Below, piece after piece: positions 874 to 18,229 of a stretch of DNA of 28,923 nucleotides. Source of the DNA: a bacterium (lineage in GTDB: Bacteria > Bacteroidota > Ignavibacteria > UBA10030); contig JAZDJN010000047.1 in the NCBI GenBank assembly GCA_043803945.1, forward strand, positions 1-28,923. The letters run 5' to 3'. Position numbers and translations under genes: made by a program. Below the pieces are notes generated by a model. The model worked only from the letters and a program-made list of their open reading frames with translations. It had not been told where the DNA came from and did no database searches. Positions within the stretch are counted from its first letter, which is position 1. Each line of letters starts with the position of its first letter.

Positions 874-1239
874 TGTACTCCGATAAGGATTTTATTTGTT
901 CTTTCTTCGAAAAAGATCTTATACTTTTCGCGCATGCCGATGCGTCCGGATCATGGCCACCTGATGACACCGGATAAACACAGGGAAGGTATCTATCCGG
1001 GGTATTCTCTCTTCGGAAGAATGCGGGGCCTGGCCGAATTACGCGGTATGGAGATGGGAATCAGACGATCCCTCGGTTTAGATTGATCTTCGCAAAGAAA
1101 AAAAACGCAGTGGGGTGCAGTTCCTCTGTGTGTGTAACGACCTGCAATCAACAACATACTCGATTCTTTTCAGAAGGTGAAATTGAATAAATGCAAATAC
1201 TAGTTCTCGCACGGAGAGCCGCAACTGAGCATTTGTGGA

Positions 1240-2565
1240 CTAACTCATCTCAAATTCTTTTATTTCGGGTACGAGTAAATTAAAGACGAACAACGCAATC
1301 ATGTATGCTGAGCCGGCAATAATGAACAGGATGAGGTAACTTCCGGTGAGCTGAAGAATTACGCCCGCGGCTGTGGCAATTAACATACCACCGATTGATC
1401 CGGCCATACCACCAAGACCGACCACCGAGCCAATAGCTTTTTTCGGAAACATATCTGACACCGTGGTAAATAAGTTCGCCGACCACCCTTGGTGAGCTGC
1501 AGAGGCAAGTCCAATCAGGAAGACAGCCCACCATTGCGATACGGTCGATGCGAACACGATCGGAGTGATCAGGAGAGCACAAAGAAGCATGACACGCTTT
1601 CTGCCCTTGTTGATACTCCAGCCCCGTTTGATAAATGCACCCGAGAGCCATCCTCCACCGATACTGCCGATGCTTGTCATGGTGTAGATGATGATCAGCG
1701 GCAAGCCCAATTGCACCAGGTCCAGATTGTATCGCTGATGGAGGAATTTCGGAAGCCAATAAATATAGAACCACCAGATCGGGTCGGTCAGAAATTTTCC
1801 CATGACAAATGCCCATGTTTGGCGATACCGTAAGAGGCTCGCCCAGGGGATTTTTTCCGATGTTGTTTCTGATGGATCGCTTCGAATAAATGCGATCTCT
1901 TCTCTGGTGACCTTCTTGTGTTTTTCTGGCACTTCGTATAACCACAACCAAAATATAAGCCAGACGAATCCAAGCAAGCCTGTAAAGATGAATGCCTCCT
2001 GCCAACCCCATGTGACAGTGAGCCATGGCACGACAATCGGTACAAGTAGTGCTCCGATATTGGCACCGGAGTTAAACAATCCGGTTGCCAGCGCGCGCTC
2101 TTTTTTAGGAAACCACTCAGCAGTAGTTTTTATCGCGGCTGGAAAATTCCCGGATTCCCCCAGTCCCAAAGCAAATCGAGCAAGTCCGAAGCCGAAGACT
2201 GAACTTGCCAGGGCGTGGGACATTGCTGCGAAGCTCCAAAAAATTACAGAAAGAGAGAAACCGATTTTCGTTCCAATTTTATCGATATACCTGCCAACGA
2301 AAAGGAGTCCGATCGCATAAGCAGCGGTGAAGGCTGTCACAATGTAACCGTACTCGATTTCAGTCCAGCCGATTTCTACCTGTAAAACGGGGGCAAGCAG
2401 GCCTAAAACCTGCCTATCGACATAGTTGATCGTTGTAGCAAAGAACAACAATGCACATACTGCCCAGCGATATGAGCCTACTCCTCCGTCACTAGCGGGG
2501 GATGGAAAGGGATTTGACTCTGTTCGTGTAGGATTGATTTCGTTCAAAGGTTTTTTCGATCTCAT
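1240..2565 (-). CDS. exuT: MFS hexuronate transporter (ExuT-like, ACS family)
   Basis: 441 aa with about 12 hydrophobic helices. Motifs YRW..CALLFFATTINYVDRQ, GESGNFPAAIKTTAEWFPKKERA, FLTDPIWWFY and AAHQGWSANLFT. Confidence 0.88.
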   Translation of the reverse strand: MRSKKPLNEINPTRTESNPFPSPASDGGVGSYRWAVCALLFFATTINYVDRQVLGLLAPVLQVEIGWTEIEYGYIVTAFTAAYAIGLLFVGRYIDKIGTKIGFSLSVIFWSFAAMSHALASSVFGFGLARFALGLGESGNFPAAIKTTAEWFPKKERALATGLFNSGANIGALLVPIVVPWLTVTWGWQEAFIFTGLLGFVWLIFWLWLYEVPEKHKKVTREEIAFIRSDPSETTSEKIPWASLLRYRQTWAFVMGKFLTDPIWWFYIYWLPKFLHQRYNLDLVQLGLPLIIIYTMTSIGSIGGGWLSGAFIKRGWSINKGRKRVMLLCALLITPIVFASTVSQWWAVFLIGLASAAHQGWSANLFTTVSDMFPKKAIGSVVGLGGMAGSIGGMLIATAAGVILQLTGSYLILFIIAGSAYMIALFVFNLLVPEIKEFEMS

Positions 2566-2619: not shown

Positions 2620-4881
2620 TTATCTGAGCAGCATCATTTTTCTCGTCTCAGATGAATTCCCGACTGTTATCCTGTAAAAATACACACCGGAAGGCAGCCC
2701 CTGAGAATTCCAGATAGTGCGATGGATACCCGCCGGGAGTTCCTTCTGCACCAATACTGCAATCTCTCTGCCTAACAGATCCACAACGTTGACGCTGACG
2801 TAACTACGTGTTGGTAACTGGAAGGAGATAGTGGTCGTCGGATTGAATGGATTCGGATAGTTTTGATCTACCTTGAATTTTTCTGGCAAGACATGGTTTT
2901 CTTCCACTTGAACAACACTGCTTTGATTAACGGGAGCATAACTGACACCGTCATACCATGTTCGCGTTATATCACCTGCCATTGTGCTCGTTGTGCCCAA
3001 TCGGGTGGCTTCGTCATCTATGTAGACCTCAATACTCTTGTTTGTTGTCACCTCTACTCGACCGAGATATGCCTGGTAGAGATATGTGTTGCCGCTGCCG
3101 GCAAGAACAAGTCTCGCTTCATGATCGCCATCTTCTACCTCTTTGCATGCCATCGATCTGAAAATTTGCATTTTGTCTGCAGCAAGACCAGCTTTAATTC
3201 GCCAATCTGCTGTTTTCAGAGGAATTCCCCAGAAATTAACCCATACATCGTACGTTCCTGCGTCATGTAAATCTATCTGTGTTTTTAGAGCAGGAGCATT
3301 TTCACCAGCAGTTAGTTCAGCAGATGTAAGAACAGTTCCACCATTACCCTGACCAGTCCGGAGATGCCACTTGCTATCCATTGTTCCAGCACTTGTATCC
3401 GGACCGGTAGTTACCAGTGCAGCTCCGTCTGCAAATGTTGTGTTTGAAGTTGTCGCATCAACATAATTTTTCTTTCCAATGGTCTCCAAGCGCCTATCCA
3501 AAATACCGACAACAGCCGCATCGAAATTCTGGGCACTTGTGTAAGTTCCACGGCACCATACTAAAGCCGTGTTATTATTATCCCAAAGTGGAACAACCGG
3601 ACGGAAATTATCACGAACAGATTTTTGCGTAATCGGTGTCCATGTCCAGATTGCACCATGATTGGCTGTCACCCCTTTCCAAATTTCACGTACTCCTAAA
3701 CTAATTGAAGTATCACGTGGATCATTGGGTGTTGATATATATAGCGTATTAGGATCGTTGGGACATAAAGCTCCTAAGCCTGTATAGTCTTCTTCAGAGG
3801 AATAAAATTTCAATCCAGCTTTCCCTAAGTATGTGTATGACCACCTGGTACCATCATAGCGGCAGTAAATGAAAGCATGTTCTGGATTTGCTATCGGTGC
3901 CACATTATATCCATTGCTGAAACTTTGATTTGTGCGTGCTGTTATGATCGTCGCAATAGAACCATCATTGTATCTCATAAGGTCTGCCTGCCAACAGCGT
4001 CTCATTGTATCATTTCCAATAATGGTATTATTGCCAAAGACTTTTGTGAAATTCCAGAATGCAGGTATAAAGGTCGTATCGGTAATATCATTGTCCGCAA
4101 GCGTTCCATCCGATGCATATGCTTTGCCACCTTTGATATATCCATGATAAATACTCGTCAATGTATCGCGTGGATGCTGCTCAGTGAAGACGAAATCAAT
4201 GCGGTCAATGCCGTTACTCCAGTATTTATAATATCCTTTATTGTACGAGCTGCTGGTATTTGTGGTTAATTGACCGCCCCATGACCATGTATCACCCAAG
4301 TCGTTCGATATAAGAAAATTGGGAGCTCGGTGATTCGCTCGTTGAAAATCGTACATCCGATTTTCCGCTGATAGATAGTAGACATTATTATAGGCAAGAG
4401 TATAATCAATACCTCCCGGCTTAGTTCTCCAATCGTAGGTTTTTTCAGGAGCCCATGTCGTACCATCAAATATTCGATACCGAGTTACATTATTATCATA
4501 ATGCTGATCATACATCGCAAGATACTTTCCATCGGGGCGGACAATAAGTCCAGCAGAATTGTGATCATCGGGACTGGTTGTCCACAGAATGTATCTCTTC
4601 GAAGTTGCCGTCTGTATATCAAAAATCACAGCATCATTTGCTCCGTTGCGCGCCGAACCGCCTACTCCTCCTCCATATGCGGCAGAACCGAGAATCAGTT
4701 TACTGTTGTTAATATCGATAATCACTCGTTCGTCCTGGAACCAGCACCAAAAACCATTATCGTTGAATTGTATCAGATTGCCCTTCACAAGATCCCGTGC
4801 GGTTTGACCATAACTCGAGGGTGAGGAGAGTGGCAGAAGAAGTATCAGGAGTAGGATCGACGTGCAGAGATTATTTTGCAT
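2620..4881 (-). CDS. Secreted BNR-4 repeat (beta-propeller) protein with T9SS type A C-terminal sorting domain
   Basis: Signal peptide; NDNGFWCWFQDER; DDHN motif; Asp-box-like repeats SNDLGDTW and TANHGAIW; C-terminal QNYPNPFNPTTTISF...SGVYFYRI...TRKMMLLR. ATG at 4881 preferred over the track's TTG at 4899. Confidence 0.8.
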   Translation of the reverse strand: MQNNLCTSILLLILLLPLSSPSSYGQTARDLVKGNLIQFNDNGFWCWFQDERVIIDINNSKLILGSAAYGGGVGGSARNGANDAVIFDIQTATSKRYILWTTSPDDHNSAGLIVRPDGKYLAMYDQHYDNNVTRYRIFDGTTWAPEKTYDWRTKPGGIDYTLAYNNVYYLSAENRMYDFQRANHRAPNFLISNDLGDTWSWGGQLTTNTSSSYNKGYYKYWSNGIDRIDFVFTEQHPRDTLTSIYHGYIKGGKAYASDGTLADNDITDTTFIPAFWNFTKVFGNNTIIGNDTMRRCWQADLMRYNDGSIATIITARTNQSFSNGYNVAPIANPEHAFIYCRYDGTRWSYTYLGKAGLKFYSSEEDYTGLGALCPNDPNTLYISTPNDPRDTSISLGVREIWKGVTANHGAIWTWTPITQKSVRDNFRPVVPLWDNNNTALVWCRGTYTSAQNFDAAVVGILDRRLETIGKKNYVDATTSNTTFADGAALVTTGPDTSAGTMDSKWHLRTGQGNGGTVLTSAELTAGENAPALKTQIDLHDAGTYDVWVNFWGIPLKTADWRIKAGLAADKMQIFRSMACKEVEDGDHEARLVLAGSGNTYLYQAYLGRVEVTTNKSIEVYIDDEATRLGTTSTMAGDITRTWYDGVSYAPVNQSSVVQVEENHVLPEKFKVDQNYPNPFNPTTTISFQLPTRSYVSVNVVDLLGREIAVLVQKELPAGIHRTIWNSQGLPSGVYFYRITVGNSSETRKMMLLR

Positions 4882-4969
4882 TGAGGAACTTTCGATCAAT
4901 ATATTATCAGAAAAAACGAGTTGTGAGAGGCAACATTATGATAGAAATCTGGATTTTTATCAGTTCAAT

Positions 4970-5121: not shown

Positions 5122-7626
5122 CTATCTATTGTTAAGCAAATCGTTTACCGCATTCACTAAGAAAATATAACTTGAACCCATATTGATGACATATTCATTC
5201 TCTCCCCACAAAAAGGGCCAGTCGTCCTTACTTTCAGGGAAATCAGGTTTGAGAATCAGAACTCCTGGGACGATACCACCGGCGATAAATGAGAAGTCAG
5301 CACGGTTGTTCCCATAGGCAACACGTTTCGACACGGTCCCAACACCTGAGACGAATGAGGTATTCGATCCGGGATGACAGCCATAGAGATAGTTCAATCC
5401 AGCAAAAACGTGTTCCTTATCGATGAGGTGTGGAAACACTTTGTGGAGATGATAAGTTGTGAGGGCAAATCCCATCACCGTACCACCTCCAGCCCATCCA
5501 GTTGTGGTAATAGGAACTCCAAATGGGTTCTGTTTGATGAGGTCGCTAAGTGTTCTGTTGTAGTTGTGAGCAAAGGACTCGATCTGTTTCTTAAATCCTT
5601 CATCCATAAACGGCAGGGCACGAAGTGCCGGTACAGCATTCAAGCTAAATCGATTTTCAATTGCCGGCAGCAGTTCGTGGATTCTTTTTGCATACGTTGC
5701 GTTGCGTGTGCAAATCAATAACTCAACTGCCGCTTTCAATGCTTCGTCCTCTAATCTCCCTCCGGTCGTATTACCATGGGAGAAGATGTTTGGTGGATGG
5801 GTCTGTTCCTCATCCCAGACTCGTATCGCCGTTGCAAGACATTCTTCGGCGAGGGTATCGTTGAATCCGCGGAGTACGCGGCTGGCTGCTGCCAGGGCTG
5901 CGATCGATCCATAATTCAATGGTGTCGATTTGGTGGTAAATGCCCATCGGTCATCGTAGGTGCTGCTTGTCAATCCATCCGCTGATGAGGACTTCAGCGC
6001 TGGAGCATAAACAAGGTTATCCGTTATCGTTATGGCATCACCCAAGTGTGTGTATTGAGAAAGAGAAGAAACGATGATTCCCGGAATCGCATGGCCAATG
6101 GATCGATGTTGTGCTATGAGAGCGAGAGTCCCATGCTCTATTTGCTGCAGGACATCGGGTTTCCTGTCAGGCATGTGAATATCGACGTACCGCCGTTGTT
6201 GATCGATTGTCGTCTGATCTCTCGTGGGTTTGAACGCTTCCCATGTGTAAACCAGGCTTAGCACAGTTTGGTACTGTGTTTGTGTCCGGATATCATGATC
6301 CCCGGCATCGTACCATCCTCCAATATTCAAGCCTGGGATATGTTCTCCCGGTGTGTATGGTGAATCTGTTGTAGGCCCTTGAGCGTAGAGATCAAAATGG
6401 AGATGATTGACTGGCGCCTGAAGTGCATCATCGAGATGAGATGCACCATGCCATACTCTGTATGCCTCATTCACAAACATATGATCCATTTGAACAGGGA
6501 AGAAGACATCGAGTGTGGGGTGCCACGCACTGCGATACACATCCTGATCGATGCGGAAGGGTTTGGTATGAAGTGTATCGTATTCGATAATGTAAAGTCC
6601 GCTTTCGCTCACCGGGGAAAAATCGAACCGTGCGTAGCGGTACCTAAGATATGTTCCCCATGGTTGTAGCGAGGCAGTATAGGTTACCTTGTATTCTCCA
6701 CGCTCTGTCACTTTGAGCAATCGTGCTGCGGTGTGCAGTGAATCATTTGCATCAAATTCAATGACGCCTATTTTGTTTTGCTGCGGGTGATAACCGAGTT
6801 GTGAATGAGCAATCATCGGCGCTCGTTTCCAGCCTGGTATTGTTGTTGCGGTGAGCAGCCATCTTAACACTGTTCCCGTTGTGCCGGAAGGGAGGAGCGA
6901 TCGGACGACAAACCATCCATTCTGTGCTTTATTCCGGCCGTCATACAATGCGATGGTTCCATCGATTCCGCTGATTGTTACATGACGTTCAGGATCTTCC
7001 GGGGCGAACACTATCTGCCTGCCCGTAACAATTGGCTTTGGTTCGACTGTACCCCATGGTGTTTGTTCCATCGGGCCACCAGGATAAAGTGGAAAGATTC
7101 CACTCTTGCCATCCATGATGTACCCTTTTTCGAAATATGCAGAGGGAAGAAATTCCAGGTTCAGTCCTGCTCTACCCTCTAGCCCCGGGGGAAGCGGCTT
7201 TTGAAAATGAACACTGATCAGTATTCCCTCTTTGACTGATTCTGTTTTGATCGTGTACTCAAAGCCATAGTGCGGGTAGGAGAGAGATGCTTCTATGCTA
7301 TTGGTTTCTCTGTTTATTGTGCGCCGTACAAATTTCGGTAGAGAATCCCATTGCTCTGGCGTTGGATTTAACCGGACATCTCCGTTTGTAGCGGTTCTCA
7401 CACCATGATGGATAATCTCGATGCCACTGATCTTTGCATCGCTGAAGTTCCCGTCGTACCAATTACTGAAGACCAAGACATTCAGGCCGCGCGCTTCATA
7501 ATATTCGCGATCGTTTAATCTTAGTTGCGCCGTCGTTCCTTGCGCAAGACAACCTCCTGGTACGAAAAAAATAAGTGCTACTGCACTTCCTACGACCTCG
7601 AATAATCTAACAAGAAGTTTTCGCAT
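5122..7626 (-). CDS. Glycoside hydrolase family 9 protein (signal peptide, long N-terminal domain, Ig-like CelD_N, GH9 catalytic domain)
   Basis: 834 aa. HSQLGYHP marks the Ig-like domain start, GGWYDAGD is the GH9 catalytic-base motif, and C-terminal WGENEYVIN carries the catalytic acid. Confidence 0.85.
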   Translation of the reverse strand: MRKLLVRLFEVVGSAVALIFFVPGGCLAQGTTAQLRLNDREYYEARGLNVLVFSNWYDGNFSDAKISGIEIIHHGVRTATNGDVRLNPTPEQWDSLPKFVRRTINRETNSIEASLSYPHYGFEYTIKTESVKEGILISVHFQKPLPPGLEGRAGLNLEFLPSAYFEKGYIMDGKSGIFPLYPGGPMEQTPWGTVEPKPIVTGRQIVFAPEDPERHVTISGIDGTIALYDGRNKAQNGWFVVRSLLPSGTTGTVLRWLLTATTIPGWKRAPMIAHSQLGYHPQQNKIGVIEFDANDSLHTAARLLKVTERGEYKVTYTASLQPWGTYLRYRYARFDFSPVSESGLYIIEYDTLHTKPFRIDQDVYRSAWHPTLDVFFPVQMDHMFVNEAYRVWHGASHLDDALQAPVNHLHFDLYAQGPTTDSPYTPGEHIPGLNIGGWYDAGDHDIRTQTQYQTVLSLVYTWEAFKPTRDQTTIDQQRRYVDIHMPDRKPDVLQQIEHGTLALIAQHRSIGHAIPGIIVSSLSQYTHLGDAITITDNLVYAPALKSSSADGLTSSTYDDRWAFTTKSTPLNYGSIAALAAASRVLRGFNDTLAEECLATAIRVWDEEQTHPPNIFSHGNTTGGRLEDEALKAAVELLICTRNATYAKRIHELLPAIENRFSLNAVPALRALPFMDEGFKKQIESFAHNYNRTLSDLIKQNPFGVPITTTGWAGGGTVMGFALTTYHLHKVFPHLIDKEHVFAGLNYLYGCHPGSNTSFVSGVGTVSKRVAYGNNRADFSFIAGGIVPGVLILKPDFPESKDDWPFLWGENEYVINMGSSYIFLVNAVNDLLNNR

Positions 7627-7773: not shown

Positions 7774-9012
7774 TTAAGACTTTTTCGACAATCGAAGCAT
7801 CTCGCTGCCGGCTAAGAGAATGGCGCCGATACCATGAATGTCATTGAGTGGCGTTGGCCGTTGATAATAATGAACGAGATCGTCGCTTACAACGGTACCG
7901 GCGCAGACTCCTTCGACCATACCATCGGAACGTATCCTTGAGAGAATTCCCTCCCATCCACGCTCTGCGATGGAGGCATAGCGCGGCTCGATATAGCCAT
8001 TGTTAACTGCGCGGGCAATCGTGTAGGTAATCATTGCACTGCCAGAAGTCTCCAGATACGAATCAACCTTGTCGAGCAGTTGATGCCATAGTCCGGTTTC
8101 GCTTTGGTACTGTGCAACACCAAAGATGTGCCGGCGAAAGAGAGAAAGCAATCTCTGGCGATGAGGATGATTCTTCGGCAAACGGTCCAAGAGGTCGACC
8201 TGTGCAATCAGGGCCCATCCGTTCGCTCGCCCCCAAAATGCAATACCGGGACGGTTCACATCCGAATACCAACAATGATGCATAATTCCGGTTCTTTCAT
8301 CGAACAGGTACTTTTGAAAGTTAATGACCTGTTGTGCAGCATCATTGAAATAGCGCCTGTCGTGTGTGAGTTCACCCATGCGGGCAAGAAATGAAATGCT
8401 CATATAGAGGTCATCTGCCCAGAGTGTCCACTGATGCGGGAATGACCGGACGAATGTACCGTCCTTCAGCCGCTGCTGGCGCTTCTGCATATGAGAGGCC
8501 GTGAGGTCAATATATTGTTTGTATCTCTCTTGTTGACTGTGCCGATAGACCTCGATGACGCTTGCTCCCATCGCGCCACAATCGTCAAGTTCTTCCATAA
8601 TGAAGAACTCTCCAAAGGGATAATCCCATTTGTTCTCACCCGTATAGTTATTCTGGAAATAGCGGTAGTGATCAAATCCGAAGTCGACGTTTTTGTAAGC
8701 AAAGGAGATATAGGTTGAATCACGGAGCACATCTCCTAATCGCATCATCGCTAAGTTGAGAACACCATTCCAATAGCGCCAATCGGTGTAGGGGCTTTCA
8801 GGTCGCAGTTGAGAGTCTCGTGGTGCTTCGTCAGGAGAGGCAAACCGGGTTCCGCTTTTTTGATCCAGAAATTCGAAGGATGCCTTCTTGAGCACTCCAT
8901 CTGCAATGGAGCGAAGTTTTCGCTCTGTGGACAGAGAGTCCTGCGCCAATGCTGGCAACGACAGGAAGCAGAGAACTCCGATAGTAAAAAGTGAACGATT
9001 ATATGCGATCAT
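7774..9012 (-). CDS. GH105 (GH88/YteR-like) unsaturated uronyl hydrolase
   Basis: Signal peptide; LDDCGAMG, LWADDLYM, FWGRANGW, GLWHQLLD, YLETSGSAM, HGIGAILLA. Confidence 0.88.
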   Translation of the reverse strand: MIAYNRSLFTIGVLCFLSLPALAQDSLSTERKLRSIADGVLKKASFEFLDQKSGTRFASPDEAPRDSQLRPESPYTDWRYWNGVLNLAMMRLGDVLRDSTYISFAYKNVDFGFDHYRYFQNNYTGENKWDYPFGEFFIMEELDDCGAMGASVIEVYRHSQQERYKQYIDLTASHMQKRQQRLKDGTFVRSFPHQWTLWADDLYMSISFLARMGELTHDRRYFNDAAQQVINFQKYLFDERTGIMHHCWYSDVNRPGIAFWGRANGWALIAQVDLLDRLPKNHPHRQRLLSLFRRHIFGVAQYQSETGLWHQLLDKVDSYLETSGSAMITYTIARAVNNGYIEPRYASIAERGWEGILSRIRSDGMVEGVCAGTVVSDDLVHYYQRPTPLNDIHGIGAILLAGSEMLRLSKKS

Positions 9013-9045
9013 TGGTATTGTTCTGTGGCAACGTCGTCGAACGAA

Positions 9046-10089
9046 TTATCCCTTCCTGCCTGGAAATGTGTTTACTGCATGGAGAAAAGCCTTGATATTC
9101 TCTGTGCTGACACCTGGCGGCATCCCGCCTCCGCATGAGAGAATCACTCTCGACTGGTTTTGCTGGGAGTTCATGAGTTCAATCGTGGCAGTCGTGATCT
9201 CTGCCGGAGTTCCGTTAGCCAGCACATCACGCGGTGGTATATTGCCAAGGAGGGTTACACTGTTGTGGGTTAACTGTTTCAATTCATTCAAGGTGATGTC
9301 AAATCCCATATTGAACAGGTTAACCCCCATCTCGGGCAGATAGGGAGCTGAGACCTTACATGGAGCGTCGTTGTGTAAAAATTTTACCGAGACAGTAGTA
9401 TTATATAATTCTTTAAAATACGGAAGTCCAAACGTGCAGAACTCGGTTTCTCCAATAAAGCCGATGATGTCGTCGAGGAGAAAGATGCCATCGATTGAAG
9501 GAAACGTTTCCATCTGGAGGTTCAGCCAGTCTTTGAGATATACCGTGATCTTTTTCATGAGTACTTCGATTTTTTGAGGTTCCATCATCAGCGCCATCAT
9601 AAATTCGGTCGAACCCATCAGGTAGCTGGCGATATTGAGCGGGCCCCGTGCGACGGCAAAGCGAATCTTATGGCCTGCTTCCTCGATCTTCGGCTGTGCG
9701 ATCTTTAACCGGTTCAACACAAACGGTAGGAGGCCGTCGATTTTGGGATTTGGTACCGGGAGCGAGGCGATATCGTCGGTTGAGTTCAGAATTTTATATG
9801 CATGAGGAAATTCGTTCGGCGGAAATGAACAGCGTGCACCAAAGGCTGAAGGTTCCGTACACATGCCGAACTCAGACCAGAAACCAGGCAGAAACAGTAC
9901 ATCAGGGAAATCGTTCAAGGCCTTCAAGTTTGCCTTCAGCCATAACTCATCGTTTGAAAAATAATCGAGGATCTGTATGCCGTACCAGTTTGGCAGCCAT
10001 GGACAATCGATAACAAATCCGGTCGGTAATGGATGGAAAACTTCTCCGTTAATAATCTTCCTCAGCGACTCCCATTGATGATCGGTCAT
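9046..10089 (-). CDS. Uroporphyrinogen decarboxylase family protein (URO-D / MtaA-CmuA methyltransferase-like; not canonical HemE)
   Basis: 347 aa, no signal peptide. GPLNIASYLMG, FLLDD, FLHND, LLGNIPP and ILSCGGGMPPGVSTENI match the URO-D/MtaA barrel. The HemE RQAGR motif is absent. Confidence 0.8.
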   Translation of the reverse strand: MTDHQWESLRKIINGEVFHPLPTGFVIDCPWLPNWYGIQILDYFSNDELWLKANLKALNDFPDVLFLPGFWSEFGMCTEPSAFGARCSFPPNEFPHAYKILNSTDDIASLPVPNPKIDGLLPFVLNRLKIAQPKIEEAGHKIRFAVARGPLNIASYLMGSTEFMMALMMEPQKIEVLMKKITVYLKDWLNLQMETFPSIDGIFLLDDIIGFIGETEFCTFGLPYFKELYNTTVSVKFLHNDAPCKVSAPYLPEMGVNLFNMGFDITLNELKQLTHNSVTLLGNIPPRDVLANGTPAEITTATIELMNSQQNQSRVILSCGGGMPPGVSTENIKAFLHAVNTFPGRKG

Positions 10090-10162
10090 AGTGTCAATCC
10101 TTTTGAGTGCGAAGTGGCATTGTCAACTGCTCTTCATGAGTATATCCATTTAAATCATATTT

Positions 10163-10295
10163 AACCACTGATGGCACACTGATCATCACCGAGAAAAGCA
10201 AGTGGTGTGAGATCTTGTCCGAAGAAATAACAAATAGAATCAATATCTGTGTATCTCGGTGTGTCATCCCTGCCTGCGGCAGGCAGGCGTGGAGA
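10163..10295. repeat. Small MITE/REPIN-like element with imperfect terminal inverted repeats, one arm carrying a CCTGCCTGC-GGCAGGCAGG palindrome
   Basis: Left arm CCACTGATGGCACACTGATCATCACCGAGA. Right arm (reverse complement) CCAC[GCCTGCCTGCCGCAGGCAG]GGATGACACACCGAGATACACAGA. Intergenic between GH43 and URO-D genes. Confidence 0.6.
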
Positions 10296-10352
10296 ATTTA
10301 GTGAGTAATTACGCTATTTTCATCGTCAAAAGAATATTGGATCGATCAATAG

Positions 10353-12062
10353 TTATTGATACACCTCATCGTTCCCTTGATAGTCATACCAATCGAAGTA
10401 TGCTTTCGTCGTGCTGGGCTTGCCCATCGAGGTTGCATACAGTGCGTACAGTGTTCCAACAAACCCTCCGGCAACTCTTGTGCTCACAAATGTCCCATCC
10501 ACATGTTCCTTCAACACCATCCAATGATCAGGTGAGAAGGAGTAGAGGAATGAATACGTGGGTCCATGAGCTTCAACTTTCAGATACACCGGTTTCCGTG
10601 AAAATTCATCTTGAATCACTTGAGAAACAATCAGATCCATTTGTTGAGGCTGACTTGTGGAAGAACGGAACAGTTGAACAACCGATTCCTTTCCATTTGC
10701 TGATTTGCACAGATAGTAAAAATGCTTCTCGTTATGGAAGACAAGGAGCCCTGCTTTTTCGTTTTCTGATTGTGCGGTAAACTCCAACGCAATAGCTGCC
10801 GAGCCCTGAGTGTGCGGCTGGCGTCGTCCGATAAAACTGGGATTCGCGGAGTCCGAACATCGTTCCGGACGAAGCGAAAGCGTAACATAGCCTTTCCTGC
10901 TGCTCAGGTCATACCATTTCTCTCGAGGTGTTCTTAGGAATATCCAATCCGGATGTAATGCACTCGAGTCGAAATTATCTTTGATACGAAAATTCCCGCT
11001 ATAACGGATCTCGGATGGATTGCCCAATGGACGGATGGGGGAGGGGTAATGATATTGAACCTTTTCATAACCGGGATTGATGATAGGCCAGCCGTCGATC
11101 CATTTCACTGGTGCAAGGAAGGTCTCCCGCCCGGTGTTATAATAATGATCCTCATACGGTTTATAAGGCCTGCATCCGAGAAAGACTGCCCACCAATCAC
11201 CGGTTTCAGTTTCCACAAAGTCGGCATGCCCGGTTGACGTAATTGGAAAATTTCTTTGAGGATCGAGATGGCGTTGTGTGAGAATGGGATTCTTTGCGTA
11301 GGGTCGATAGGGACCCTTAACCGATGTACTTTTGAAAACAACTTCCGAATGCTGATCGGCTGTTCCGCCTTCTGCAGCGATCAGGAAATACGTTCCGTCC
11401 GTTTTAAAGATGTGGGGTGCTTCAATCCACACCGGCTTTTTGGTGATGTCGACACCACCGTTGATCAGGAGAATTTCTTCTCCTATCACCTTAAGACCAA
11501 CAGGATCGAATTCATACATCCTGATTGTTCTGTGTCCATTGTATAATGATTTATCGTCAGGAGGAATACTATTATAGAGGATGTAAGCTTTGCCATCATC
11601 ATCAAAGTATGGCGATGGATCGATTCCGTTGATTTGCGGGATCCAGACAGGATTTGACCATGGGCCGTTCGGAGATGCCGACGTGACGATAAAATTTCCG
11701 CCTGCATCAACCAACGTACAGGTTGTATAGAATTTGCCGTTGTGATGCCGTATCGATGGGGCAAAGATTCCGCGCGAAACACCAAGGCCGTCAAGGTTCA
11801 ATTGTTCAGGCCTGTCAAGCACATGCCCGAGAAGTTTCCAGTTGACGAGATCTTTGCTTTGAAAAATTGGAATCCCCGGATAATAAGAGAATGATGAAGT
11901 GACCAGATAATAGTCGCTGCCCACGCGGCAGATGCTTGGATCGGGATAAAATCCGGCGAGGATTGGATTGCTGAAGCCTTTCTCGTTCTGTGGTAAGGTG
12001 TGAAGAGCGATGAAGAGAAAACAGATGCAAAGGCCAATCGCGAGTATGAGCGATTTGTTCAT
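10353..12062 (-). CDS. GH43 beta-xylosidase / alpha-L-arabinofuranosidase with C-terminal beta-sandwich domain
   Basis: NPILAGFYPDPSI, GIFAPSIRHH, GIDPSPYFDDDG, WIEAPHIFK, TGHADFVET, TGRETFL, C-terminal GGFVG. ATG at 12062 follows GGAG and begins a signal peptide. Confidence 0.92.
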   Translation of the reverse strand: MNKSLILAIGLCICFLFIALHTLPQNEKGFSNPILAGFYPDPSICRVGSDYYLVTSSFSYYPGIPIFQSKDLVNWKLLGHVLDRPEQLNLDGLGVSRGIFAPSIRHHNGKFYTTCTLVDAGGNFIVTSASPNGPWSNPVWIPQINGIDPSPYFDDDGKAYILYNSIPPDDKSLYNGHRTIRMYEFDPVGLKVIGEEILLINGGVDITKKPVWIEAPHIFKTDGTYFLIAAEGGTADQHSEVVFKSTSVKGPYRPYAKNPILTQRHLDPQRNFPITSTGHADFVETETGDWWAVFLGCRPYKPYEDHYYNTGRETFLAPVKWIDGWPIINPGYEKVQYHYPSPIRPLGNPSEIRYSGNFRIKDNFDSSALHPDWIFLRTPREKWYDLSSRKGYVTLSLRPERCSDSANPSFIGRRQPHTQGSAAIALEFTAQSENEKAGLLVFHNEKHFYYLCKSANGKESVVQLFRSSTSQPQQMDLIVSQVIQDEFSRKPVYLKVEAHGPTYSFLYSFSPDHWMVLKEHVDGTFVSTRVAGGFVGTLYALYATSMGKPSTTKAYFDWYDYQGNDEVYQ

Positions 12063-12140
12063 TTCAACTCCTGCCAATCGTTTTTATAAGATCAGATCCT
12101 ATGACTTCCTCTATCTTGAAAGTCGCTGCATGAAATACTT

Positions 12141-15122
12141 CTATTTTGTTGTGCTGGCAGCTTTTCCGGTTCCATGGAAACTCTCCGGCGGTCCTAAATA
12201 GCTGGAACGAACGCTGTCAGTCTCGATGACGATCTTTTGCAGAACCACTCCTGGATCGACAGCCCAGAACTTCAGTACGTGGCCTCCAGGTTCGTTGAAT
12301 GTATGCTTGGAGGCTTCGACTGTAACATTATTTCTCACGGACTCTTCCCAATCCTGGAAGGTCTTCTTTGAATGCATATTCACGATCTGAGGTCGTTCGG
12401 CATCGAATGAAATTCCATAGCGCAGACCTTGATTGTTGTGAAAGTTTAATGTGGGGGAGAGATAGGCTTTCACCGTTACTTCCCCTTTTGAAAAGAGATG
12501 TACGCTATACTCCAGTCGCGGACTGTCTCCCTCGGGCATTTGCGCCGGCACTGTCACCGGAAAAGGTGTCATTGAAGATCCGGTACGACCTAAATCAGGA
12601 ATTCGCTGCCAGGTGATGGGATGTGTATTTACTGCACGGGTGAAATGGTCCGCTTCGATGGAGATATAATTATTACTCTCGATGAATCGATTCAGTTCTT
12701 CTCGTTTAGGGGAGATGGGTTTGTGGATGACTGCATAGACGATCACAGCGGTGTTGCTCGGCCCGGCAATCGTCAACGGAACACGATGCCGGCCTGAAGG
12801 CACATGGTTCCAATCAATGCTGATCCCCAACCGTTTCTCTCTATCTATTGTTCCTCGCGGAGAAGAGATTTTGATCCAGGATTGTTCTGATTGGACAGAA
12901 TACTCGAATGGTGTTGTTCCCCGGTTAAATACCTCTATATAATATGTTTGTCGATGGTAAACATCGAATTCCGGTAAGACCGCTTCACGTTGTTCACCGG
13001 TCATTGCCGTGTCAGGCCAGCAGTCCTGGGATCCTTCGATCGCAACACCCATACTCGGCGTGGAGGGAAGCTGAATCTCTTTCACATCGGGCATAGTGTT
13101 GGTTTCCGGCTGCTGCCAGTATGTATATCCAATGTGTGTTTGATCCATCATGTGATTCCACTTACCGCTTGCCAGAATTGTATTGTAATAATGTGTGATT
13201 GTTGTGTCACGATTATACAATTCCCGTGCTTTTACTGCAAGACCATTCGTTGCCGCGCGACCCTGCTGTGCATAGAATCGATTCTTTCCGACGGTGAAAT
13301 AGAGTTCGTTGAGGTTCGAGCAGGCAAGTGTCGGATGCAGCACAAGTTGGTAAAAAGCAGCTTTATATTCCGGGGAGAGGGTATCGTAAAGACGCTGGGC
13401 TCTATCAGCGAGAGCATTATAATCGGCGACGATTGTTTCAGCTTCTCTATAATTCACCAGACTGTATGTGTCGGGAGCCAGAAGCTCGGGCTTGCGGCGC
13501 GAATTATATTTTGTATAAAGCGAGAGAATTTCCACAATCTCTTTTGCGTGAGCGGATCCAAATTGCTTTTCTGCCCACCGTCGGGTGTAATCCGGCAGGC
13601 GTTCAGCGGGCCACTGGTCGGGATTCCATGCATAATCGAGAAAGAACTCGATCGGGAACTCCATCGGTTTAATGTCACCGACATTCACAATCCAAATACG
13701 TGTTGCCCCATATTCGTAGGCCAGGTGCATTTGTTCCCAGACTCTGGAGATCTGGTTTGTGTTTAGCCATTTATAATTTCTTGGACCCCCGACGTAATCA
13801 TAATGATAATAGATACCGTAGCCGCCGGGGTGCGGAGGATCGGTGAGTTTCGGCAGCTTGCGGATGTTTCCCCAATTGTCGTCGCACAAAAGGAGTGTTA
13901 CATCCTCCGGTGCACGCATCCCTTTATCATAATAGTCCTGCACTTCCTTGTAGAGAGCCCACACTTGTGGAATGGCAGTAATATCTTTTCCCGTCACGTC
14001 GCCAAGGATGGTGCGCTGATCGCGAACAATTTTTTGGAGCAGAGCAATGTTTGATTCTTCGGTCATCGGTTCGTCACCGTCACCTCTCATGGCCAACGTC
14101 ACGATACTTTCATTCGTCCCCATTCGCTGAATGCCTTGGCGCCAAAAGTTTTTCAGCACAGACTCATTCTTCTCATAGTTCCAGGGTCCATTGCCGAACT
14201 GTGCCCATTCGGCATGAGCACGCATCATCGGTTCATGGTGAGATGTTCCAATCACGACACCATATTCATCGGCAAGTGTTGGATTGACTGGATCGTCGAC
14301 GTAAAACGCTCTTCCCCACATCGCGGGCCAGAGGAAGTTTCCTTTCAACCGTAGAATCAGTTCGAAGACATGGTCATAAAACTTGCTGTTGAATCCGCCG
14401 AACTTCTCATAGGCCCAGCCTGATAATGCCGGTGCTTCATCGTTAATAAAAATACCACGGTATTGAACCTTGGGCTCACCCTGGGTGTGGCGGCCTGGCA
14501 GAACAAAAAGAGAGGATTGTTTTCTTACCGGAACGTCGGCCCACCAATACCATGGTGAGACACCGATAGCAGAGGAGAGATCATACATGCCATAGATGGT
14601 TCCGCGCTTCTCGCTTCCGACAATTACCAGTGCACGATCGACTTGCGGGAAAGGCTTTTCTACAAGCTGAATAAAAAATTTCTCACGGCGGCCTGTGAGA
14701 TCATCGACGCGGAGTTTCTTCTCTTGTACCAGTTTGTCGATGAAGGAGTTTTTGCCCAATGTTCCAACAAGGATGAATTCTTTTGTTGAAGGAAGAACAT
14801 CAGAGACGATAGCGGGTTTGGTACCTGTCACCCGTTCGATATCAGATTGGAGATGGTTGAGAACACGAAGAACTCCTGGATAATCCTCTGAACTCGCAAG
14901 GAGAGCCGCTGACGTTCCCGATGCGGAGAGTGTAAAAGACCCACTGCTCTTTGTTGCCGAGACGTACGAGTGTGAAGGTTGTGCGTTCACACTCTGGATA
15001 ACACAAGCAAGAACTACCAACACCTGAAGTGCATGGTGTAATCCTTTGCGTTGCTGAAAGAACTTCTCCTGAAAACCCCGGATCTGTTCCGGTTGTGATC
15101 GCTTGAAGAGCGTGTCAATCAT
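12141..15122 (-). CDS. GH115 xylan alpha-1,2-(4-O-methyl)glucuronidase
   Basis: IGVSPWYWWADVP, YRGIFINDEAP, LKGNFLWPAMW, GTSHHEPM, MRGDGD, DDNWG, YYHYDYVGGPRNYKW, WIVNVGDIKPME, C-terminal DPGVVLQKIV and SYLGPPES. ATG at 15122 avoids overlap with the GH8 gene. Confidence 0.92.
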   Translation of the reverse strand: MIDTLFKRSQPEQIRGFQEKFFQQRKGLHHALQVLVVLACVIQSVNAQPSHSYVSATKSSGSFTLSASGTSAALLASSEDYPGVLRVLNHLQSDIERVTGTKPAIVSDVLPSTKEFILVGTLGKNSFIDKLVQEKKLRVDDLTGRREKFFIQLVEKPFPQVDRALVIVGSEKRGTIYGMYDLSSAIGVSPWYWWADVPVRKQSSLFVLPGRHTQGEPKVQYRGIFINDEAPALSGWAYEKFGGFNSKFYDHVFELILRLKGNFLWPAMWGRAFYVDDPVNPTLADEYGVVIGTSHHEPMMRAHAEWAQFGNGPWNYEKNESVLKNFWRQGIQRMGTNESIVTLAMRGDGDEPMTEESNIALLQKIVRDQRTILGDVTGKDITAIPQVWALYKEVQDYYDKGMRAPEDVTLLLCDDNWGNIRKLPKLTDPPHPGGYGIYYHYDYVGGPRNYKWLNTNQISRVWEQMHLAYEYGATRIWIVNVGDIKPMEFPIEFFLDYAWNPDQWPAERLPDYTRRWAEKQFGSAHAKEIVEILSLYTKYNSRRKPELLAPDTYSLVNYREAETIVADYNALADRAQRLYDTLSPEYKAAFYQLVLHPTLACSNLNELYFTVGKNRFYAQQGRAATNGLAVKARELYNRDTTITHYYNTILASGKWNHMMDQTHIGYTYWQQPETNTMPDVKEIQLPSTPSMGVAIEGSQDCWPDTAMTGEQREAVLPEFDVYHRQTYYIEVFNRGTTPFEYSVQSEQSWIKISSPRGTIDREKRLGISIDWNHVPSGRHRVPLTIAGPSNTAVIVYAVIHKPISPKREELNRFIESNNYISIEADHFTRAVNTHPITWQRIPDLGRTGSSMTPFPVTVPAQMPEGDSPRLEYSVHLFSKGEVTVKAYLSPTLNFHNNQGLRYGISFDAERPQIVNMHSKKTFQDWEESVRNNVTVEASKHTFNEPGGHVLKFWAVDPGVVLQKIVIETDSVRSSYLGPPESFHGTGKAASTTK

Positions 15123-15195
15123 ACGCAGCCCCGTATCTTGTTTCGTTTGGATATGTAGTATTCCTGTTGCACTCGATCGATCCATGCCAAGCCGA

Positions 15196-16503
15196 TTACT
15201 GGGGTGGAGAGAGAATTTTATAACTACCACTGACATGCAGGAACGCCAGCAGATAGAGCATGCCATCATAGTATCGGTAATGGCCTGAGGGGATAGCAGC
15301 ATTCCAGAGTTCTTCCACGAACTCTTTCCTCTCGGGAATCGTTGCTGCAAGCGCTGCGACAGCGTTCATGGCGACAAGGCCGGTACTATGGTCCGATGAG
15401 AGTTGTTCTCCCTCCAGTGTGTATACATTTCCATGGACACCTATTCCCTTGGAATAAAAGAACCGCAGAATGCGGTTGGATTGAGACACTTCCCAATTGT
15501 CTTTTGCAAACCAGGAATAATCAACAGCAACATTCATCGCCACCCTCCAGGCGTCGAATTGAAAGTATTGATGACCTCCACCCCATGGACTGAATGGCGT
15601 ACCATCGAACCGAGCATAATCAGGTGCAAGTCCGGTAACGGGGTGAGCAGCTTTTTTGAGGAATTGCCGGCTTGTTGCTGCGGCCTCAGCCCAAAACCGA
15701 TTCTCCTTTGTTGCCCACAGCGCCCAGAGTTCATAAAAGTGGGGGAGGTGATAGGAGGGATCGGTAAATCCGGCGCCTTGAATTTCTGGAACAAAAACAA
15801 CCTGTTGCTCTTTTGCATTGAACATATTCGTACTAGTGTCGTCATGTTCCGGCTGAGACTCCTGCGTTAGCATCGCGTCGAGAATTGCTTGTGCCTCATT
15901 TCGATAGTGAAAAATTCCCTCCCCATTCCCCCAGCGTGCTGAGGCAAAAAAAAGCGCGGTGACAAACCACTCTTCTCCATCCGAAGCGGCCGTAGAAGAA
16001 ATCTTGGAGCCGTCCGTACGGCAGTGCCATGCAAAGTAATTCTTTCTTGGACCTTGGTGATGCTGCATAAAGGTCTTCGCCCATTTCCATAACCGGTCAA
16101 AGACCTCCTTCTTGTCAAGCTGCACGGCGATCATCATACCGTATGACATCCCTTCGGTTCGAATATCATTATTGTTAATATCTTTGATGTAACCCAAATC
16201 GGCCCCTACAGGATAGTAGACCCGCTGTGTTGAATCGTCTCCATAGAACAGTTGATGGAACGCTCCGTTAATTTTGCTCTGGATTTCATCTCCTCTTTTA
16301 CCCAGCATCTCTGTAAAGAGGTTTTGATATCTCCCTGAAGTGAAAGAACCTTGGCGATTTGAATCTTGTAGGGAATTCACTTGTGACATCGGAAATAAGC
16401 CCTTGGCACTGCCCGTTGAAGCAGTACTCGAATGAGATAATCCACAGGAAGAAGAGGATAGCATGAACAGAAGAATAGGGAATATCACGCATTCGTTTTT
16501 CAT
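15196..16503 (-). CDS. GH8 xylanase / reducing-end xylose-releasing exo-oligoxylanase (Rex-like), probable lipoprotein
   Basis: DIRTEGMSYGMMIAVQ, ASDGEEWF, FTDPSYHLPHFY, FDAWRV, RYYDGMLY. The N-terminal hydrophobic stretch ends SSSC (lipobox-like). Confidence 0.9.
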   Translation of the reverse strand: MKNECVIFPILLFMLSSSSCGLSHSSTASTGSAKGLFPMSQVNSLQDSNRQGSFTSGRYQNLFTEMLGKRGDEIQSKINGAFHQLFYGDDSTQRVYYPVGADLGYIKDINNNDIRTEGMSYGMMIAVQLDKKEVFDRLWKWAKTFMQHHQGPRKNYFAWHCRTDGSKISSTAASDGEEWFVTALFFASARWGNGEGIFHYRNEAQAILDAMLTQESQPEHDDTSTNMFNAKEQQVVFVPEIQGAGFTDPSYHLPHFYELWALWATKENRFWAEAAATSRQFLKKAAHPVTGLAPDYARFDGTPFSPWGGGHQYFQFDAWRVAMNVAVDYSWFAKDNWEVSQSNRILRFFYSKGIGVHGNVYTLEGEQLSSDHSTGLVAMNAVAALAATIPERKEFVEELWNAAIPSGHYRYYDGMLYLLAFLHVSGSYKILSPPQ

Positions 16504-17159: not shown

Positions 17160-17197
17160 AAAATAGCACTTTTTTCAAAAAGTGCCGGAGAATGACA

Positions 17198-18229
17198 ATG
17201 AAAAAGATTACGATTGAAGATGTTGCCAGACGCTCAGGCGTCTCAAAAGGGACAGTTTCGGCAGTTATCAATGCAAAGAATAGCGTTCGACCATCAACGC
17301 GAGATCACATTTTAGAGGTCATGAAAGAACTCAACTTTCGCCCGAAGGGTGTTGCTCGAAATCTGAAAAATGGCGACCAGGAAAAAAGCATTGGTATCAT
17401 TATTAAGGATTTGAATTACCCGTTCTATACATCGATTGCCACGGGTGTCAAGGAATATGCGAATAGCAAGGGTTACTCTGTATTCGTGGCCAGTTCAGAG
17501 GATGATCATAAATGTGAAAAAAAGTTCTCGCACCTCTTTTCATCGAAAGATATCAAGGGTGCAATCATTGCGCCGATTGTAGAGGGAACAGCGGAGATTG
17601 AACATCTCTTCAAACTGAAAATGATCAATTATCCATTCGTCTTACTCGAAGATGTGAAAGGGATTCAAGCGAACGTTGTCGCGATCGACAACATCAAGGC
17701 AATTAAACGGGCAGTGACGTACTTGATTGAAAGCGGTCATACAAAAATTGTTCATTTCGCAGGTCCGCCAAGTTCTTCTCACACGCAAGAGCGTATAGAG
17801 GGATTTCGCCATGCGTTTAGTGAAAGTCCATTGGTCTTCAACAGTGAGATGATTGTTTCTATCGGTTCTCACTACGATGAATGCATTGAGAAAACCAAAG
17901 AGTATTTTAAGAAAAAGAATCGGGAAGAGTACCCCACAGCGATTGTCTGCTTCAATGACTTGCAGGCCCTAGCCGTCATGACGGCATTGAAGGAATTGAA
18001 TCTGCGTGTGCCTGATGATATCTCTATAATCGGAAACGACGATATTTCCTATGCAAAAATTTATCCAGTTCCCTTGACGACGATTAGAGCGCCCCAGCGT
18101 GAAATCGGACAAAAAGCAGCAGAAATCTTGATTCGTAATATTGAATCCACGACACTTCTGCCGATTGAGCGTGTGGTGTTCGAAACGGAATTTGTTATTC
18201 GGGAATCATCAAAAGTATTAAATGTCTAA
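17198..18229 (+). CDS. LacI/GalR family transcriptional regulator
   Basis: HTH ITIEDVARRSGVSKGTVSAVIN, hinge ARNL, C-terminal PTAIVCFND, VPDDISIIGND and LTTIR. ATG 17198 is better spaced from GGAG than 17192. Confidence 0.95.
   Translation: MKKITIEDVARRSGVSKGTVSAVINAKNSVRPSTRDHILEVMKELNFRPKGVARNLKNGDQEKSIGIIIKDLNYPFYTSIATGVKEYANSKGYSVFVASSEDDHKCEKKFSHLFSSKDIKGAIIAPIVEGTAEIEHLFKLKMINYPFVLLEDVKGIQANVVAIDNIKAIKRAVTYLIESGHTKIVHFAGPPSSSHTQERIEGFRHAFSESPLVFNSEMIVSIGSHYDECIEKTKEYFKKKNREEYPTAIVCFNDLQALAVMTALKELNLRVPDDISIIGNDDISYAKIYPVPLTTIRAPQREIGQKAAEILIRNIESTTLLPIERVVFETEFVIRESSKVLNV

Follow-up and report, generated by a model that had tools for sequence, protein, structure and literature searches.

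Gene content of the locus

The stretch of DNA analysed here (the window) comprises 28,923 nucleotides of contig JAZDJN010000047.1 from assembly GCA_043803945.1, a bacterium assigned to the Ignavibacteria (Bacteroidota; UBA10030), and carries a series of glycoside hydrolase (GH) genes on its minus strand. Among them lies the subject of this report, an intact open reading frame (ORF) of 347 aa with an ATG start at 9046..10089 (minus strand), whose product matches the Pfam family URO-D (PF01208) over residues 38-341 with an E-value of 1.5e-33 and has no evident signal peptide. This URO-D-fold protein is considered below as a candidate methyltransferase I (MT I), the substrate-specific component of a corrinoid-dependent O-demethylase, with 4-O-methyl-D-glucuronate (MeGlcA) as its proposed methyl donor.

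An earlier reading of the window, made from its letters and predicted ORFs (the sequence-only reading), had described the gene as co-oriented with and situated between GH43 and GH105 genes, 33 bp from the latter, in a locus with GH115 and an ExuT-like importer. The strand of the ORF and the Pfam assignments of its neighbors (Table 1) agree with this arrangement, the gap to the downstream gene being 33 nt (9013-9045). Among the related loci described below, the GH88/105 gene directly adjoins the URO-D ortholog in 5 of 77 and lies no more than three genes away in 11 of 77. GH115 was likewise recovered, while the ExuT-like character of the importer held at the family level only: the best NCBIfam match of this major facilitator superfamily (MFS) protein was to TIGR00893 (D-galactonate transporter subfamily), with 245.9 bits where the cut-off is 395. 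The same protein is 74% identical to the MFS protein encoded after the URO-D ortholog in locus L032.

Some details of the locus concern its individual genes. The GH115 ORF as listed opens with a TTG start and overlaps the end of the GH8 gene by 155 nt; its true start is probably an internal Met near 15122, ahead of a signal-peptide-like stretch. The uxuA remnant, which adjoins the MFS gene, is 57% identical to residues 347-392 of a UxuA of 398 aa, and the genome of the window yielded no other UxuA match; the locus has been remodeled. The spacer between the GH43 and URO-D genes contains a GC-rich palindrome, CCTGCCTGC..GCAGGCAGG, near 10269-10289, which lacks a T-run and could be a hairpin or an operator-like element. 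A promoter and terminator scan of positions 8900-10500 found nothing above shuffled sequences.

Table 1. Annotated features of the window and of three gene clusters elsewhere in the same genome
Feature	Position	Strand	Basis or remarks
URO-D-fold protein, 347 aa, candidate methyltransferase I (methyl-sugar:corrinoid protein)	9046..10089	-	PF01208; ortholog linkage to corrinoid cassette
GH8	15196..16503	-	PF01270 E 1.6e-30; recurs upstream of GH115 in related loci
GH115 alpha-glucuronidase	12141..15350 as listed	-	PF15979 E 8e-157; GH115_C E 1e-60
GH43 + GH43_C2, beta-xylosidase/arabinofuranosidase type	10353..12077	-	PF04616 E 6e-93; PF17851 E 1e-53
GH43/URO-D spacer, 263 nt	10090..10352	-	site of corrinoid/PF02574/activation cassette in related loci
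GH88/GH105-family unsaturated uronyl hydrolase-like gene	7774..9012	-	PF07470 (Glyco_hydro_88 model, covers GH88 and GH105) E 1.2e-78
GH9-like protein with CelD_N	5122..7626	-	PF00759 E 1.6e-20; cluster recurs in 7 sources including the window
Type IX secretion system (T9SS)-sorted secreted protein	2620..4899	-	PF18962; cluster representative matches BNR_4 (PF15892)
MFS, anion:cation symporter type (ExuT/DgoT-like), candidate uronate importer	1240..2565	-	PF07690 E 4.6e-59
LacI-family regulator, divergent from operon	17192..18229	+	PF00356/PF13377; cluster recurs in 22 sources including the window
uxuA (mannonate dehydratase) remnant, last 47 residues only	934..1074, within ORF 751-1086	+	PF03786 positions 311-350 only
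Corrinoid protein, Met_synt_B12 activation protein, PfkB, lyxose-isomerase-like cupin, 385-aa URO-D paralog, unknown 335-aa protein	C92 (L022:5319-10456)
Operon: pterin-binding methyltransferase - MetV-like (DUF5981) - MetF - corrinoid protein; no MT I alongside	C99 (L108:9788-12790)	-
LarA-like protein, PfkB kinase, SDR, second ExuT-like MFS, UxaC	C56:30228-37621

Sequence and structural relationships of the URO-D-fold protein

The protein belongs neither to HemE nor to the MtaA/CmuA group. Membership in HemE was rejected because its score against TIGR01464 (54.4 bits) falls far below the curated equivalog cut-off of 302.95 and the RQAGR arginines are missing. When a family profile built from 57 members was aligned to solved structures from the PDB, the segment MRQaGRYLPEY of HemE 6w2o stood opposite the profile segment ivd.spflaslag, where the target reads FVIDCPWLPNW, so that RQAGR has no counterpart, just as the sequence-only reading had noted. 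In HemE, N-terminal arginines of the RQAGR type bind the carboxylates of the substrate. The two proteins share a fold, and an acidic residue of the target, E73, aligns with the aspartate of the HemE motif FSD, which we take to be catalytic; the genomic context of the target, however, is that of carbohydrate rather than haem metabolism.

Membership in the MtaA/CmuA group was rejected on similar grounds, with scores of 59.6 bits against mtaA_cmuA TIGR01463 (cut-off 235.4) and 49.3 bits against MtaA NF040654 (cut-off 400), and with the His-x-Cys...Cys zinc site not kept. MtaA and MtbA, the methylcobamide:coenzyme M methyltransferases represented by 4ay7, have the same fold and align with the target from end to end, and the His of their H-x-C motif is retained as H239, whereas their two zinc cysteines correspond to D241 (the Cys of HICG) and G321 (the second Cys, in PGCG) in the target, whose host is not a methanogen. 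It had been suggested that HND and SCGGG occupy the MtaA zinc positions, which is essentially right, except that C319, the Cys of SCGGG, lies two residues before the position of the second MtaA cysteine. Position 241 is D or E in 56 of the 57 family sequences.

The AlphaFold2 model of the protein is of high confidence (pLDDT 96.9, pTM 0.94) and displays eight strand/helix repeats. Foldseek comparisons place the model equally close to UROD (TMq 0.75-0.78) and MtaA (TMq 0.78, TMt 0.80), and the profile matches HemE 6w2o (E 1e-30) and MtaA 4ay7 (E 1.8e-29) to a similar degree. Residues E73, E79, S81, D118, D206, D207, H239, N240, D241, N283, S318 and the GGG motif are invariant in 78 of 78 orthologs. 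H140, R148 and R287 are likewise found in all 78 and vary in the wider family, and C244 (76/78) and C319 (77/78) are also specific to the group; the window copy retains every one of these invariant or group-specific pocket residues. According to the secondary structure of the model, R148, D206/D207, H239-D241, N283, R287 and S318/C319 lie at or just past the C-terminal strand ends of the barrel, the predicted catalytic face. A polar, acidic pocket with group-specific arginines, as modeled, would suit a sugar acid, and H239, D241, C244 and C319 might form a metal site that aids the departure of a poor alkoxide leaving group.

A split MetH-like cassette in related loci

Related loci were taken from one genome per species and comprised the best 80 of at least 582 relatives confirmed by tblastn, at 62-80% identity; 77 of them gave an ortholog ORF, and L054, L059 and L095 were dropped. 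ORFs of at least 90 aa, with overlaps removed greedily, were grouped by single-linkage BLAST clustering, and the clusters were named from Pfam and NCBIfam matches of one representative each together with BLAST to the window proteins, a crude method. The carriers in these 80 loci include Ignavibacteriota, Melioribacteraceae (among them the cultured Rosettibacter primus), Kryptoniota, KSB1, Fibrobacterota and Calditrichota, as well as Spirochaetes, Opitutales, Lentisphaerae and Bacteroidales.

The commonest neighbors of the orthologs are three clusters that do not occur in the window, namely a 222-aa corrinoid protein with B12-binding_2 and B12-binding domains (37 loci), a 294-aa homocysteine-type S-methyltransferase of PF02574 (35 loci), and a protein of about 250 aa with a MetH-type Met_synt_B12 activation domain (36 loci). 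These genes, referred to here as the cassette, typically stand in the order GH8 - GH115 - GH43 - corrinoid - PF02574 - activation - URO-D - (aldo-keto reductase) - esterase - MFS. In 43 of 77 loci a cassette gene directly precedes the ortholog, namely that of the activation protein in 34 loci, of PF02574 in 8 and of the corrinoid protein in 1, and among the 61 loci with at least 2.5 kb of upstream sequence, 35 contain at least two of the three genes within four genes and 23 contain all three. The expectation that this subfamily would be found near corrinoid genes was thereby borne out. The DxHxxG motif of the corrinoid protein is invariant, the Cys...Cys-Cys zinc motif of PF02574 and an RxxxGY-like motif of the activation protein are kept, and the cassette proteins look functional by these marks. 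In terms of domains, the cassette is MetH in separate pieces, with its homocysteine-binding, B12-binding and activation modules as individual proteins and its pterin (methyl-folate) module replaced by the URO-D-fold protein.

Genes for the release and catabolism of uronic acids form the second recurrent element. UxuA, SDR, UxaC, GH67, GH105, GH9 and LacI recur near the orthologs, and 31 of 77 loci have GH115 or GH67 no more than 10 kb away (25 of 49 when loci shorter than 15 kb are set aside), as had been anticipated for homologs of the window gene. When UxaC, UxuA or an ExuT-like MFS is accepted in addition to GH115/67, these figures rise to 43 of 77 and 34 of 49, respectively. The MFS gene directly adjoins the ortholog in 7 loci and is at most three genes away in 12. 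Cassette and alpha-glucuronidase do not always coincide, GH115/67 being present and the cassette absent in 12 evaluable loci. One of these 12, L106, comes from a different genus within the family of the window (71% identity) and shows the cassette-less order GH8-GH115-...-GH43-...-URO-D-GH105-BNR4-MFS also seen in the window.

The neighborhoods further point to two possible fates of the methyl group. PurU formyltetrahydrofolate deformylase, scoring above its NCBIfam cut-off, lies directly upstream of the ortholog in five loci (L029, L039, L044, L076 and L078), where it occupies the position of the cassette and hints at oxidation of the methyl group to formate. Orthologs (75-81%) of the pterin-binding methyltransferase, MetV and MetF encoded on C99 of the window's genome (Table 1) are separated from the URO-D ortholog by 2-4 kb in L028, L064 and L067, and in L105 the ortholog is immediately followed by genes for a pterin methyltransferase and a corrinoid protein like that of C99. 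The C99-type genes and the upstream PurU genes tie the family to a tetrahydrofolate branch in addition to the homocysteine branch represented by the PF02574 protein.

Distribution in the class Ignavibacteria

The class of the window was sampled evenly at 201 genomes, of which 19, from six families, have the ortholog (E <= 1e-60), 19 have GH115 and 17 have GH67. Either alpha-glucuronidase was present in 18 of the 19 ortholog carriers and in 3 of the 182 non-carriers, and a small corrinoid protein (E <= 1e-35, a threshold that excludes MetH) in 19 of 19 carriers as against 38 of the 182 others. Co-occurrence with GH115/GH67 and with B12-binding proteins, which the sequence-only reading had proposed as a check, is thus observed for both, although these ratios describe association and are not independent statistics, since the sampled genomes are related to one another and the genes concerned are physically linked. 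GH10 served as a control: among the 30 genomes that have it, the ortholog occurs in 18 of 20 with an alpha-glucuronidase and in none of the 10 without, 5 of the latter being weak GH10 matches.

This distribution bears on the donor of the methyl group. The orthologs could instead be corrinoid MT I enzymes for aromatic methyl ethers, as in acetogens, acting on ferulate or other methoxylated phenolics freed by esterases. GH43 enzymes are known to remove arabinose that carries ferulate, and an esterase of PF00756 is the next gene after the ortholog in 11 of 77 loci and is found no more than three genes away in 16. Moreover, the characterized O-demethylating MT I enzymes named in the passages of PMC13222342 that treat them, MtvB, OdmB, VdmB and MtoB, all use methoxylated aromatics. 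On the other hand, the cluster-7 esterase is absent from the window, the ortholog tracks alpha-glucuronidases among the GH10 genomes, and its recurrent partners are hexuronate-type MFS, UxaC, UxuA and SDR rather than aromatic-acid genes. The conserved pocket is also polar, acidic and arginine-bearing, in contrast to the mainly aromatic cavity described for CdmB in part of the same source (PMC13222342). An aromatic donor is regarded as unlikely.

The same pattern helps to assess whether the protein might act on the acceptor side or with another donor, either as an MtaA-like methyl-corrinoid:acceptor methyltransferase, fed for example by MtaB, or as the MetE-like methyl-folate module of a split methionine synthase. 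Such a role would accord with the closeness of MtaA, which equals that of HemE in both fold and profile, with the inclusion of MetE in the superfamily (passages of PMC10418091 and Foldseek matches), with the resemblance of the cassette to a MetH in pieces that lacks the pterin module, and with two MtaB homologs, one encoded directly after the ortholog in L031 and the other beside a URO-D paralog in the window's genome. It is nevertheless rather improbable. The protein does not preserve the His-Cys-Cys site with which MtaA activates its thiol, the cassette already holds a zinc-type thiol methyltransferase as its acceptor module, and MtaB adjoins the ortholog in only 1 of 77 loci. A housekeeping split methionine synthase was rejected as a candidate, given that the genome encodes a full-length MetH (on C101, in a frame of 1196 aa) and that the distribution is patchy and linked to alpha-glucuronidases; a housekeeping enzyme would not be expected in just 19 of 201 genomes or to be tied to such genes.

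Paralogs, related clades and domain fusions

Of 8000 candidates scored in a word-indexed search, the best 119 apart from the window's own protein are 75-81% identical and belong to assemblies labelled Ignavibacteria or Bacteroidota, and an exhaustive search of 1.84 billion cluster representatives gave 1461 relatives at E <= 0.001, of which 118 reached E <= 1e-30. The genome of the window (5.54 Mb in 118 contigs) itself encodes 15 URO-D-fold genes, none of which reaches the hemE or MtaA cut-offs. Their neighborhoods were inspected by ORF calling and Pfam scans of +/-8 kb, and about half of these genes lie among sugar genes: one on C82 adjoins GH67, and one on C73 stands between GH123 and GH38. 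On C87 (L017:6550-9270), a full-length homolog of MtaB (methanol:cobalamin methyltransferase B, E 3.7e-158) adjoins a URO-D paralog, and this pair is surrounded by genes for PfkB, ROK and glycerate kinase in a host that is not a methanogen.

In a quick maximum-likelihood tree, the target orthologs form one clade (SH-aLRT 100), with none of the other 14 paralogs of the genome inside it. A second URO-D clade, about 22% identical to the target and also a clade of its own (SH-aLRT 100), is found repeatedly on the downstream side of the ortholog at a distance of a few genes, in most cases immediately ahead of the MFS gene (for example, L035:14812-15879, L040:17765-18826 and L042:11069-12088), and has no ortholog in the genome of the window. 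At least three unrelated URO-D clades are found beside the same kind of cassette, namely the target group, the clade of about 22% identity and the clade of the C92 and C73 proteins, a pattern that is expected of substrate-specifying MT I subunits. A more distant member of the family, P0198, is 26% identical to the target from end to end, keeps HND and is fused to B12-binding_2 and B12-binding domains. Three further composite sequences, P0273 (GH67M+URO-D), P0271 (SDR+URO-D) and P0272 (Amidohydro_2+URO-D), were not counted as fusions, each being a single sequence from one contig that may represent a gene-call run-on between adjacent genes.

The association with corrinoid proteins also argues against a corrinoid-independent reaction on a uronate, which might take the form of a cofactor-free decarboxylation like that of HemE or of a beta-elimination of methanol from MeGlcA, yielding a 4,5-unsaturated uronate for the GH88/105 enzyme or a downstream pathway. 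This possibility draws on the window and the 26 of 61 evaluable loci in which the cassette is missing, on the equally close fold of HemE with E73 at the position of the FSD aspartate, and on the GH88/105 gene, a member of a family acting on unsaturated uronides, which comes next in the window and in 5 of 77 loci and is no farther than three genes away in 11. Weighed against the cassette gene immediately upstream of the ortholog in 43 of 77 loci, the small corrinoid protein of all 19 carriers (38 of the 182 other genomes), the corrinoid-binding fusion of P0198 and the missing RQAGR arginines, it appears very unlikely.

Candidate partners elsewhere in the genome

As the sequence-only reading had remarked, a Pfam scan of the window found neither a corrinoid protein nor an activation gene, and no remnant of the cassette proteins was recognizable by blastx in the GH43/URO-D spacer or anywhere else in the window (no match better than E 2.2). 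That reading had supposed that the partners might be encoded elsewhere, and the content of the genome fits. Tblastn revealed no orthologs of the cassette proteins in it, the best matches being paralogs: corrinoid proteins on C92 (60% identity to the cassette protein) and C99 (54%), an activation protein on C92 (41-45%), and PF02574 proteins on C92 (43%) and C17 (34-38% by tblastn, fused to MTHFR according to Pfam). RACo-type activase (PF14574) was not found in the genome.

The genes on C92 would constitute a second sugar-linked corrinoid system, judging from their content. GH38, amidase, PF02574 methyltransferase and ferredoxin genes are located nearby, and the positions noted for this system also include L022:15531-16409. 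The C99 operon, together with the activation protein of C92, is the likeliest partner set for the window copy that we can infer from the gene content. Small corrinoid proteins were also found elsewhere in the genome in all five of the cassette-less genomes that were searched. With respect to the fate of the demethylated sugar, glucuronate catabolism is predicted to be present through UxaC of C56, and the cluster to which it belongs looks like a UxuA-independent glucuronate route.

It might be argued that the family has been read correctly and that the window copy is nonetheless a non-working orphan left behind by decay of the locus, considering that the cassette has gone without trace, that uxuA has been cut to a remnant of 47 residues and that true cassette orthologs were not found in the genome. 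We rate this as the least probable of the alternatives. The ORF is intact and retains all residues that are invariant in the 78 orthologs, the same cassette-less gene order exists in another genus (L106, 71% identity), paralogous corrinoid, activation and methyltransferase II (MT II) genes are present, and the UxuA-independent cluster on C56 could process the glucuronate.

Proposed function and comparison with known systems

The synteny, distribution and fusion data make a role in corrinoid-dependent methyl transfer probable and well supported, and assignment to the MT I group draws on the fold and on the synteny of the orthologs. The more specific statement, that the gene product is the MT I that confers substrate specificity on a corrinoid-dependent O-demethylase, with MeGlcA as its donor, is considered moderately likely; it is the gene context that points to this substrate, and the donor is most likely either MeGlcA itself or a short MeGlcA-xylo-oligosaccharide derived from glucuronoxylan. 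Comparative genomics supports the proposal of the sequence-only reading that the methyl ether of MeGlcA is removed so that the sugar can enter uronate catabolism, with the identity of the substrate again being suggested by the neighboring genes.

In the proposed pathway, GH115 of the window and GH67 of C82 would free the methylated uronic acid, which the ExuT-like MFS would take up. In the cytoplasm, the URO-D-fold enzyme would hold the sugar while Co(I) of a small His-on corrinoid protein accepts the methyl group, yielding glucuronate and CH3-Co(III). The corrinoid would then be unloaded by a second methyltransferase, which in cassette-bearing relatives would be the zinc-type homocysteine/thiol methyltransferase of PF02574 and in the genome of the window probably the pterin-binding methyltransferase of C99, feeding MetVF. 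Oxidized cobalt would be repaired by the MetH-type activation-domain protein of C92, and glucuronate may be channeled into the UxaC-SDR-LarA-like-PfkB route of C56.

Passages of PMC10418091 (Kountz and Balskus) and PMC13222342 describe a UroD superfamily among whose members are corrinoid MT I enzymes that act on methyl groups bound to O, S or halide, and no sugar substrate is named in those passages. Like the corrinoid O-demethylases and the chloromethane system (MtvB, OdmB, VdmB, MtoB and CdmB), the cassette-bearing loci of the orthologs encode an MT I candidate of this superfamily together with a reactivation protein, a further methyltransferase and a corrinoid protein that is small and of the His-on type, and some loci, as well as the genome of the window, resemble the acetogen type in possessing a pterin-binding MT II and MetVF. 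They differ in three respects. The known systems use phenyl methyl ethers or a halomethane, whereas the putative donor here is a carbohydrate (alkyl) methyl ether; the usual acceptor module in the ortholog systems is the PF02574 homocysteine-type thiol methyltransferase; and a MetH-type activation domain serves as the predicted activator instead of the ATP-dependent RACo type of the O-demethylases. The cassette system likewise differs from MetH in being tied to xylan and uronate genes, in genomes that also have a full MetH. A functional parallel is said to exist in the cytochrome P450 that demethylates 6-O-methyl-D-galactose in marine porphyran degraders, reportedly described by Reisky and colleagues in 2018 from a polysaccharide utilization locus. 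This enzyme, too, is understood to remove a methyl ether from a polysaccharide sugar so that catabolism can proceed, but it is reported to depend on O2, to be unrelated in fold and chemistry, and to release formaldehyde.

Several points weigh against MeGlcA demethylation by a corrinoid-dependent MT I. In chemical terms, a sugar alkoxide leaves far less readily than the phenolates released from the substrates of known O-demethylases. The zinc triad of MtaA is absent from the target, and the MT I CdmB (9rui) is matched more weakly than HemE or MtaA, at E 1.1e-19 and over profile positions 155-347 only, that is, the C-terminal half. According to the part of PMC13222342 that deals with metals, some MT I enzymes contain zinc, while CdmB and the Moorella enzyme do not. 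With regard to the window itself, corrinoid, activation and acceptor genes are lacking, the proposed pathway assigns no part to the adjacent GH88/105 gene, and the cassette proteins have only paralog-level matches in the genome, as compared with the 77-79% identity of the URO-D orthologs. Among the related loci, the cassette is missing from the 26 of 61 mentioned above, 15 of the 49 long loci contain no alpha-glucuronidase or uronate genes, some cassette-bearing loci (L051, L060 and L082) have unrelated surroundings, and in L031 the gene after the ortholog encodes an MtaB homolog, similar to that of C87. Finally, the physical linkage between the ortholog and GH115 inflates the phyletic association.

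Implications for hemicellulose catabolism

In hardwood xylan, most of the glucuronic acid is 4-O-methylated. The later aldol cleavage of uronate catabolism needs a free 4-hydroxyl, from which it follows that the standard pathway should not be able to finish on the methylated sugar. Methanol was reportedly observed by Bi, Rice and Preston in 2009 among the products of methylglucuronoxylose fermentation by Enterobacter asburiae. A full-text literature search, which left subscription journals largely uncovered, returned no description of a MeGlcA demethylase, of a role for URO-D proteins in polysaccharide loci or of corrinoid action on methylated sugars, and the removal of the 4-O-methyl group by bacteria, above all by anaerobes, appears to be a gap in hemicellulose catabolism. 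The orthologous group described here, which is conserved at 62-80% identity across many phyla and linked to both alpha-glucuronidases and B12 proteins, is a concrete candidate for filling this gap.

In its broadest form, which is put forward tentatively and with some doubt, the proposal is that anaerobes of many phyla strip the 4-O-methyl group from xylan with a MetH that has been taken apart, passing the methyl group to a B12 protein and from there to homocysteine (forming methionine) or tetrahydrofolate. This might be the first oxygen-free system for the O-demethylation of carbohydrates and the first corrinoid methyltransferase to act on an alkyl methyl ether that is neither phenolic nor methanol, and other URO-D paralogs in glycan loci, in a genome that has 15 such genes, might play the corresponding part for further methylated sugars. 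Were the proposal correct, the degradation of fiber and wood in sediments, digesters and guts would acquire a B12 requirement, the breakdown of hemicellulose would be connected with methionine and one-carbon metabolism, and corrinoid O-demethylation chemistry would extend to sugars. It would also offer a reading for the large, unexplained expansions of the 'uroporphyrinogen decarboxylase family' in glycan loci.

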